Position numbers and translations under genes: made by a program | Assembly (NCBI RefSeq): GCF_002272895.1 | Contig: NZ_MLAQ01000001.1 | Span: 109,800-149,799 of the forward strand | Reading direction: 5' to 3' | Length of the DNA: 40,000 bases | Origin: Helicobacter sp. 12S02232-10 | Lineage (GTDB): Bacteria; Campylobacterota; Campylobacteria; Campylobacterales; Helicobacteraceae | Shown: positions 35,097 to 35,366 of the stretch, one piece after another | How the letters are laid out: each line of letters opens with the position of its first letter | Numbering within the stretch: position 1 is the stretch's first letter | The notes under the pieces: generated by a model | The model's database searches: none | What the model was told of the DNA's origin: nothing | Seen by the model: only the letters and a program-made list of their open reading frames with translations

Positions 35097-35130
35097 AATA
35101 CTTACGAAAACCATAATTTTCAAACTTTTT
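35097..35130 (+). promoter_or_regulatory. dif-like junction site (attP-type: degenerate left arm plus canonical centre and right arm)
   Basis: ACTTACGAAAA-CCATAA-TTTTCAAACTT. The centre, right arm and 17 bp of right flank are identical to site 1. The left arm differs at 2 of 11 positions. Confidence 0.65.
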
Positions 35131-35366
35131 ATTTTATCTTGAAAAAAAATTATTGACACAAATTATATCAAAGATGTTTGTGAGTATTTTGATAAACCAA
35201 ACCCTTTTATAAAAGATGATAACAGCTTAGAAGCGGTTATAAAACAACTAAACGAGGTTATCAATGAAGTTTATTGCCTTCCATTACATTCTAAATTACT
35301 GGGGGCTTTGATTTTCCAAAAGAGAGTATTTGCAATGATGATTTATACAAACACGGATTAGTAGCT

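Follow-up and report, generated by a model that had tools for sequence, protein, structure and literature searches.

How does a small virus with no recognisable integrase of its own come to reside in the chromosome of a bacterium that has only one Xer recombinase? This question is raised by a locus in Helicobacter sp. 12S02232-10, which we analysed in a stretch of 40,000 nucleotides from contig NZ_MLAQ01000001.1 (positions 109,800 to 149,799; hereafter the window). Here, some 11 kb of DNA stand between difH, the site of the host recombinase XerH, and the chromosomal gene aspB, and they begin with a unit of 9,954 bp that separates two dif-like sites in direct orientation. We consider it probable that this DNA is an XerH-dependent integrative mobile element exploiting Xer (IMEX), inserted at difH as an array of two units. 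From its gene content and a modelled capsid protein, the 9,954-bp unit is predicted to be an intact and complete virus-like genome of the double jelly-roll lineage that encodes no integrase. Both the dependence on XerH and the order of events proposed below are what we infer from sequence.

Insertion at difH and a probable two-unit array

The window XerH is an orthologue of the H. pylori protein (64% identity over 99% of its length), and carries both the XerH-specific N-terminal domain (PF18644) and the catalytic domain of tyrosine recombinases (PF00589). Like the capsid protein described below, it shows 100% identity to a protein of strain 12S02232-10. A gap of 33 bp separates the first dif-like site (site 1) from the start codon of xerH. 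The site is organised as AGTTATGAAAA / CCATAA / TTTTCAAACT: its left arm measures 11 bp, its centre 6 bp and its right arm, which has no inserted base, 10-11 bp. In this form it fits the published difH sites of H. hepaticus (AGTTATGAAAACTATACTTTTCAAACTT) and Wolinella (AGTATTGAAAACCATAATTTTCAAACTC) (PMC2731167), and likewise that of H. pylori. The dif sites of Helicobacter sp. 11S02596-1 and 12S02634-8 are base-identical to it over 28 bp, and that of H. cappadocius is 1 bp away. By these sequence comparisons, site 1 is the chromosomal difH, beside xerH.

Relatives with an empty site show what the locus looks like when it is not interrupted. These genomes have xerH, the identical 28-bp dif and, within 200-570 bp, aspB. 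The order in Helicobacter sp. 11S02596-1 is xerH, the identical site, about 180 bp of spacer and aspB. In Helicobacter sp. 12S02634-8, the only dif between the two genes (9836-9869) is identical to site 1 and inverted with respect to both of them. The corresponding interval between difH and aspB in the window measures about 11 kb (25174-36200). Because site 1 equals the dif of these relatives, in which xerH, dif and aspB adjoin, about 11 kb have been inserted at dif.

A first-pass annotation of this DNA had claimed a second dif-like site with a degenerate left arm, and direct reading of the sequence at 35100-35127 bears this out (site 2). The longest exact sequence that sites 1 and 2 have in common is the 39-mer GAAAACCATAATTTTCAAACTTTTTATTTTATCTTGAAA, which cannot be extended beyond either end; its two copies start at 25152 and 35106, reproducing the spacing of 9,954 bp. 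The identity includes the 17 bp 3' of the right arm. Compared directly, the left arms differ at exactly two positions, as had been proposed; the changes found in site 2 are G to C and T to C. A degenerate dif pattern matches the window four times, compared with 0.17 matches expected from shuffles (0 of 100 shuffles reach four), and the dif-like sites are therefore not due to chance. Between site 2 and aspB, the centre and right arm do not occur again, even with three mismatches tolerated, so that the outer attR does indeed appear to be absent.

The DNA to the right of site 2 is a patchwork of about 1.07 kb, collinear with the intact unit (copy 1). Its blocks match copy 1 at 26052-26080, 26175-26303, 26486-26840, 27134-27373 and 33737-34075, with 98-100% identity up to position 36091 and about 75% from there to about 36185. 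Neighbouring blocks overlap by a few bases at their junctions, which points to microhomology. At the point where the remnant ends, about 1,030 bp of copy 1 are still to come, comprising the iteron-like repeats, two small open reading frames (ORFs) and the left arm. Since the sequence right of site 2 is a collinear second copy, site 2 has element DNA on both sides, as the attP of a circular form would. However, host and element have the same centre and right arm, and for this reason any attR would match attP over its 28-bp core, with or without a tandem copy. Integration of TLC-phi similarly yields dif on one side and an attP-identical site on the other (bioRxiv 10.1101/2021.09.09.459576). The earlier description of site 2 as a preserved attP thus holds for its element-derived flanks, but its core carries no such information: it is only the 17-bp flank and the remnant that indicate a tandem array. 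With these, the tandem-array and attP-equivalent reading of the sequence is well supported, and two-unit arrays are common among dif-type double jelly-roll prophages in Vibrio (PMC12715192).

Related elements repeat the arrangement of sites. One lies directly beside the XerH gene in Sulfurospirillum sp. 1612 (L011, a complete genome), and another in a Sulfurospirillaceae metagenome-assembled genome (L012). In L011, TTGTATTGGAAA-CTATAA-TTTCCAAACTC near xerH is paired with CACAGTTGGCAA-CTATAA-TTTCCAAACTA at the far end (spacing 9,159 bp); in L012, TTGTATTGGAAA-CTGTAA-TTTCCAAACTC near xerH is paired with AAATGGTGTCAA-CTATAA-TTTCCAAACTT (spacing 9,214 bp). In short form, the Sulfurospirillum pair reads TTGTATTGGAAA-CTATAA-TTTCCAAACT near xerH and CACAGTTGGCAA-CTATAA-TTTCCAAACT at the far end, where the left arm is almost unrecognisable. 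A further relative (L014) has GGTTAACATAA-TGTAAA-TTCTCTTGAAA and AGGAACATAG-TGTAAA-TTCTCTTGAAA, spaced by 10,643 bp. The window and these three relatives show one pattern: the two sites of a pair have their centre and right arm in common, and the left arm is canonical only in the site on the chromosomal side, that of the far-end site being altered. The right arm also tracks the host variant, being TTTTC in Helicobacter and TTTCC in Sulfurospirillum, in which the left arm co-varies (GGAAA). This family-wide pattern and the host-specific right arm suggest that the element mimics the dif of its host and relies on the host recombinase.

The locus therefore combines the features by which an IMEX is recognised: insertion at the host dif, direct dif or dif-like flanks (also present in L011 and L012), and no match to a recombinase family among the 19 larger element ORFs when scanned against Pfam and PHROGs. 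The coordinates of all features are given in Table 1.

Table 1. Features of the xerH-aspB interval, in window coordinates
Feature	Coordinates	Strand	Sequence or evidence
xerH, single Xer recombinase of the host, 356 aa	24042-25112	-	Pfam PF18644 3.6e-52, PF00589 4.5e-37
Site 1, chromosomal difH = attL (predicted)	25146-25173	+	AGTTATGAAAA-CCATAA-TTTTCAAACTT
39-bp exact direct repeat, copy A	25152-25190	+	
Site 3, inverted dif-like site	25207-25250	-	TTTAGTTATGAAAA-CTCTAG-TTTTCGTGCT-ATAATTTTTCAAACC
Putative replication initiator, 245 aa, first gene inside attL	25304-26041	+	phrog_186 DnaD-like 1.6e-5, phrog_19658 replication initiation 4e-4 (weak)
AapA-like type I toxin module 1	26803-27017	+	30-aa peptide MCTKHRKAFKKLYIKFKIFGIKIILKAKRG at 26921-27013
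Virion and lysis module	27154-33685	+	ATPase, capsid protein, small membrane proteins, phrog_3108 protein, holin
Packaging ATPase	28035-28718	+	STIV B204 6.5e-8, HerA 0.017, phrog_2666 4.6e-22
Major capsid protein of the double jelly-roll type	28927-29901	+	Predicted structure, Foldseek
363-aa protein	30941-32032	+	In virion module
Conserved phrog_3108 protein	32029-32565	+	In virion module
Holin	33305-33685	+	phrog_3427 6.5e-13
AapA-like toxin module 2	33824-34034	-	Peptide MMEKHHKILKELYIKFKIFGVEIIFRMKRG at 33828-33920, minus strand
Iteron- or operator-like repeats	34496-34601		GCGTCTTTTAAGTCTTAA twice and an inverted copy; repeat search
Site 2, element-derived dif-like site	35100-35127	+	ACTTACGAAAA-CCATAA-TTTTCAAACTT; attP-equivalent (predicted), junction of copies 1 and 2
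39-bp exact direct repeat, copy B	35106-35144	+	
Remnant of second element copy	35145-36185	+	Collinear patchwork, about 1.07 kb
AapA-like toxin module 3, inside remnant	35928-36130	-	Peptide MMEKHHKILKELYIKFKIFGVEIIFRMKRG at 35932-36024
aspB-like aminotransferase, chromosomal gene directly after dif in relatives	36201-37403	-	

A tailless virus of the double jelly-roll lineage

The viral nature of the element is evident in its virion module, where an FtsK/HerA-type ATPase gene stands directly upstream of the capsid gene. The capsid structure was predicted with AlphaFold (AF2) from 19 sequences gathered by an exhaustive hidden Markov model search; an attempt with three sequences had reached a predicted local distance difference test score (pLDDT) of only 41.5. 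The resulting model has a pLDDT of 80.7 and a predicted template-modelling score (pTM) of 0.77. Searched with Foldseek, it matches P3 of PRD1 at E 2.5e-21 (about 1e-21 for PRD1/PR772 P3; template-modelling (TM) score 0.73-0.76), the STIV capsid protein at 1.9e-17, and P2 of PM2 at 2.5e-13 (TM 0.57/0.67). Its top BFVD matches are tectivirus capsid proteins, and the capsid sequence profile finds the STIV coat protein at E 0.014. As modelled, the capsid fold is nearer to those of PRD1 and STIV than to that of PM2. The capsid protein itself is rare, with only three close homologues and 20 representative clusters at E <= 0.001 in the exhaustive profile search. A scan of viral contigs for it gave no match, and Pfam gave none for any structural protein.

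Corticoviridae and PM2-like prophages (PMC1950889) invite comparison, since they share the circular genome of about 10 kb, the double jelly-roll capsid gene beside an FtsK/HerA-type ATPase, the small membrane proteins, and temperate relatives in bacterial genomes. The first-pass annotation had likened the size of the predicted circle to that of PM2. This likeness in size and circularity holds, but the capsid is structurally closer to PRD1 and STIV, and there is no similarity to PM2 at the sequence level. We also detected no rolling-circle Rep: the first gene of the element has only weak DnaD/Rep-like winged-helix matches. The L011 gene in the same position is HTH_36/RepL/Rep_O-like, and the two proteins do not align. 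We therefore do not assign the element to Corticoviridae; it is more aptly regarded as a double jelly-roll phage that is unclassified and has a circular genome, as one of its relatives (L013) is circular.

That relative is a metagenomic genome of 9,870 bp with a terminal overlap of 119 bp. Homologues of the ATPase, at 36-41% identity, occur on many contigs of 9-10 kb, L013 among them. Every core gene of copy 1 is present at full length and in collinear order with relatives, at 42-81% amino-acid identity, and the gene order of the virion module is kept in L001, L011, L012, L013 and L014. L001 and L002 are Logan contigs of 7 kb (SRR28961926_624 and SRR29213555_2035) that have the same virion module and 76-81% capsid identity. 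Both end at the inverted repeats formed by the toxin modules described below, so that assemblies of the element tend to break there. Iteron- or operator-like repeats are clustered in non-coding DNA at the right end of the element, some hundreds of bp short of the far attachment site. A triple repeat stands at the same position in L011 (16515-16598) and L012 (16325-16400); the position is kept across genera, but the sequence is not. Double jelly-roll contigs have already been described in Sulfurimonas metagenome-assembled genomes, without an integration mechanism.

The element also carries three copies of an AapA-like toxin module, each of about 210 bp, on which the first-pass annotation was silent, as it was on the inverted site 3. 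They encode 30-aa peptides, MCTKHRKAFKKLYIKFKIFGIKIILKAKRG once and MMEKHHKILKELYIKFKIFGVEIIFRMKRG twice. The peptide is lysine-rich, equals H. pylori AapA1 in length, and has a KR C-terminus; in a single comparison, MCTKHRKAFKKLYIKFKIFGIKIILKAKRG shows 40% identity and 63% positives to AapA1 (E 6e-7). Modules 1 and 2 form inverted repeats that flank the block of virion genes. Read by eye, module 2 shows a promoter-like motif (TGTATAAT), a G+C hairpin at the 5' end, and hairpins with T runs behind them. Rfam gave no match for AapA/IsoA RNA in the modules, and Rfam and tRNA scans were empty overall.

Proposed integration and excision by XerH

We propose the following course of events. A tailless, integrase-less virus of about 10 kb, with a gene set of the internal-membrane type, would have entered difH of strain 12S02232-10 by means of the host XerH. 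Its attP would have the form L*-CCATAA-R, in which centre and right arm are exact copies of those in the host site and L* has two positions changed relative to the arm bound tightest and cleaved first by XerH. Recombination between attP and difH would leave a difH-identical site next to xerH (site 1), still serving the chromosome, and an attP-identical site at the far end. The older copy would have integrated first, and a second copy would then have entered the regenerated site 1, giving the two-unit array. The older, distal unit would since have lost about 9 kb in at least six deletions, including attR and the chromosomal spacer up to aspB, and would have retained its toxin module, which could explain why that piece has persisted in the decayed copy. 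If XerH recombined site 1 with site 2, a circle of 9,954 bp would be set free that has site 2 as its attP, and a dif of the site-1 type would stay behind. The predicted circle junction contains CATCGTTAAATACTTACGAAAACCATAATTTTCAAACTTTTTATTTTATCTTGAAATTCCATAATATCG, and the predicted deletion junction is site 1 followed by AAAAAATTATTGACAC.

The altered left arm of site 2 can be set against what is established for H. pylori. The left arm is the one to which XerH binds more tightly and at which cleavage begins, and substrates with right arms only are not cleaved; within difH, T4 is indispensable, and G3 next to it may make contact with K290 (Bebel et al., PMC5241119). In the numbering of these authors, site 2 has G3 changed to C and T7 changed to C, and keeps T4 and G8. 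They also equate the left arm of difH with the XerD side (PMC5241119). In TLC-phi and the gonococcal genetic island, a degenerate XerD arm limits FtsK-driven excision and stabilises the element (bioRxiv 10.1101/2021.09.09.459576). By analogy, it is possible that the altered left arm of site 2 lowers excision and stabilises the prophage. A further resemblance to these two is that the centre and one arm of the window element equal the host dif, so that integration would regenerate dif at one end and attP at the other. In TLC-phi and the gonococcal island, it is the altered arm that is cleaved first and controlled by FtsK, and the same would apply to the left arm in the window if it is equated with the XerD arm. 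The changes are fewer here, at 2 of 11 positions compared with 8 in TLC-phi and 4 in the gonococcal island. Unlike these elements, that of the window has no identified Xer activation factor, and its cargo is a virus of another realm.

Several points weigh against the account of an XerH-dependent IMEX in a two-unit array. Excision of the 9,954-bp unit is a step that we infer from sequence, and the dif/attP core did not turn up in viral and metagenome contigs scanned for the exact pattern. The change G3C may be harmless, because it occurs naturally in the only xerH-linked dif of Helicobacter sp. 11S03491-1 (ACTTATGAAAA-CTATAA-TTTTCAAACTA, at about 9866-9893), which has the same G-to-C change as site 2; if so, a single distinctive change is left and the case for arm stabilisation of the window element is weak. 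The right end of the remnant is only about 75% identical to copy 1, and the older unit may thus have been another variant and not a genuine second copy. The assembly is a draft that contains exact repeats of 300 bp, and mis-joining is possible. Finally, an IMEX offers no account of the inverted site 3.

We also put forward a broader proposal, which we regard as rather unlikely. It holds that a family of double jelly-roll phages in Campylobacterota (Helicobacter and Sulfurospirillum) exploits XerH by way of an attP in which nothing but the centre and the right arm, the weakly bound one, is kept, with site 3 acting in the Helicobacter member as a site that recruits or regulates XerH. If this were true, integration would start from an arm that XerH alone leaves uncleaved in vitro, implying either an activator encoded by the phage, or a pathway in which one strand is exchanged and replication finishes the reaction. 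Apart from this proposal, the left arms in Sulfurospirillum raise a mechanistic question, namely how a single recombinase that requires the left arm acts on such a site.

Another explanation, which we judge quite unlikely, is that the array is a fossil: both units would be defective, their sites would no longer be substrates for XerH, and the island would be fixed in the chromosome and held there by its toxin modules. The older unit is clearly dead and has lost its attR, three AapA-like addiction modules are present, the close homologues of the capsid protein number only three, and the exact-pattern scans of public contigs revealed no free form. However, the full-length, collinear core genes of copy 1 speak against this, and sites 1 and 2 keep an identical centre and right arm. 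In addition, what survives of the older copy is 98-100% identical to copy 1, which implies recent activity. On the reading that we prefer, integration through XerH, copy 1 may still be active.

The inverted site 3 raises a different possibility. This site is situated beside site 1, within the element by 35-50 bp. Its left arm is perfect, including the flank, its centre differs (CTCTAG) and its right arm is degenerate (TTTTCGTGCT); after these comes a second piece (ATAATTTTTCAAACC) that resembles a centre and right arm. With site 1 it forms an inverted repeat of 25 nt, the two halves being 58 nt apart. Such an arrangement recalls CTX-phi, where single-stranded DNA is integrated. The attP would then be a folded hairpin of the direct site and site 3, site 2 by itself would not serve as a substrate, and integration could not be reversed. 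Sites 1 and 3 would indeed fold, when single-stranded, into a dif-like stem of about 30 bp with a bulge (dG -15.9 kcal/mol, z = -3.5), and temperate double jelly-roll phages with single-stranded DNA and dif flanks exist, such as PhiCjT23 (PMC9719478). Yet in the context of the circle junction, with the left arm of the element, the left-arm stem is lost and folding is no better than that of shuffles (dG -10.4, z = -0.99). Site 2 is already well formed as double-stranded DNA, with 6/6 positions of the centre, the Sulfurospirillum relatives have no inverted partner site, and the packaging ATPase is of the type found in double jelly-roll viruses with double-stranded DNA. We consider a CTX-phi-like route highly improbable. 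Site 3, which is absent from copy 2 as well as from the Sulfurospirillum relatives, may instead be an accessory arm for XerH binding, or a fossil of an earlier junction.

An artefact, in which site 2 and the patchwork would stem from mis-assembly of repeats or an internal duplication and not from a second integration, has next to no likelihood: the source is a draft short-read assembly, the region holds exact repeats of 141-300 bp, and related Logan contigs break at the inverted toxin modules, but six collinear blocks with unique junctions and a diverged distal part are unlike a collapsed or duplicated repeat, and a far site with a degenerate left arm is also seen in independently assembled relatives that have a single copy, one of them a complete genome.

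Known Xer-exploiting elements and neighbouring observations

The closest parallels to an XerH-dependent IMEX of this kind are the dif-type prophages of Vibrio (NO16-like; PMC12715192, PMC9966536), which are likewise small (about 10-13 kb), tailless, of the double jelly-roll type and devoid of an integrase. They use XerC/XerD, and, as in the window, are found at dif with dif-like flanks and often in tandem arrays. Their attP, like that of the window element, often mimics only one arm and the centre (17 bp). In contrast, the host considered here belongs to the Campylobacterota and has a single recombinase, XerH, with its site difH. Nor is there detectable similarity to the Vibrio lysogeny module: no significant family for an XafT- or RstR-like module was found near attP, and no homologue of XafT/P15 or RstR/P16. 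The window capsid family is also rare and structurally nearest to PRD1/STIV. LME-1 of Legionella (an XerL IMEX; PMC9765430) similarly exploits a single-recombinase Xer system through a dif mimic, but its recombinase family, site and element type all differ from those of the window.

Full-text searches of open-access papers returned no report of an element that exploits XerH/difH, and none of a double jelly-roll prophage in Helicobacter, for which only tailed phages were found. No tailless double jelly-roll prophage seems to have been reported in this genus before. Exploitation of Xer by such prophages is known in Vibrio; for the one-recombinase XerH system it is, as far as we have found, apparently new.

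IMEXs have been worked out almost entirely in XerC/XerD hosts, where the division of labour between the two recombinases explains both entry and persistence. The host studied here has one recombinase, the structure of XerH with difH is solved, and asymmetry resides in the DNA arms only. An attP that alters the strong, first-cleaved arm, or in Sulfurospirillum nearly dispenses with it, would provide a direct test of cleavage order and directionality in a single-recombinase system. Prophage finders keyed to integrases will miss this class in Campylobacterota. Sites 1 and 2 also represent a ready-made pair for XerH-based excision and integration of cassettes.

Some observations concern xerH and the surrounding locus. 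The best promoter-like match upstream of xerH (25129-25156, minus strand) has its -35 hexamer inside the left arm of difH. Binding of XerH at difH could, on weak grounds, repress xerH, given that promoter-like matches in this region occur at chance density (12 found, 10.5 expected). For the same reason we gave no weight to a promoter-like match that overlaps site 3 and points to xerH. A scan of genome contigs with XerH returned only five Arcobacteraceae loci, none with a linked dif, and was uninformative. The skew profile over the 40-kb window has local maxima only.

The same chromosomal position holds other DNA in related strains. In Helicobacter sp. 11S03491-1, a 4.8-kb restriction-modification island (5606-9437) encoding a D12-class methyltransferase and an AlwI-like endonuclease lies between aspB and the xerH-linked dif; we did not retain it as another IMEX, as it has one dif-like site only and no second was found there. 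In Helicobacter sp. 11S02596-1, the 180-bp spacer between dif and aspB (about 9640-9800) contains a TATAAT motif, a G+C hairpin (GCCCCCCGTTGTGCGACGGGGGGC) and an ORF of about 30 codons. This hairpin resembles the 5' hairpin of the window toxin modules, and the spacer may be a relic of an earlier element.
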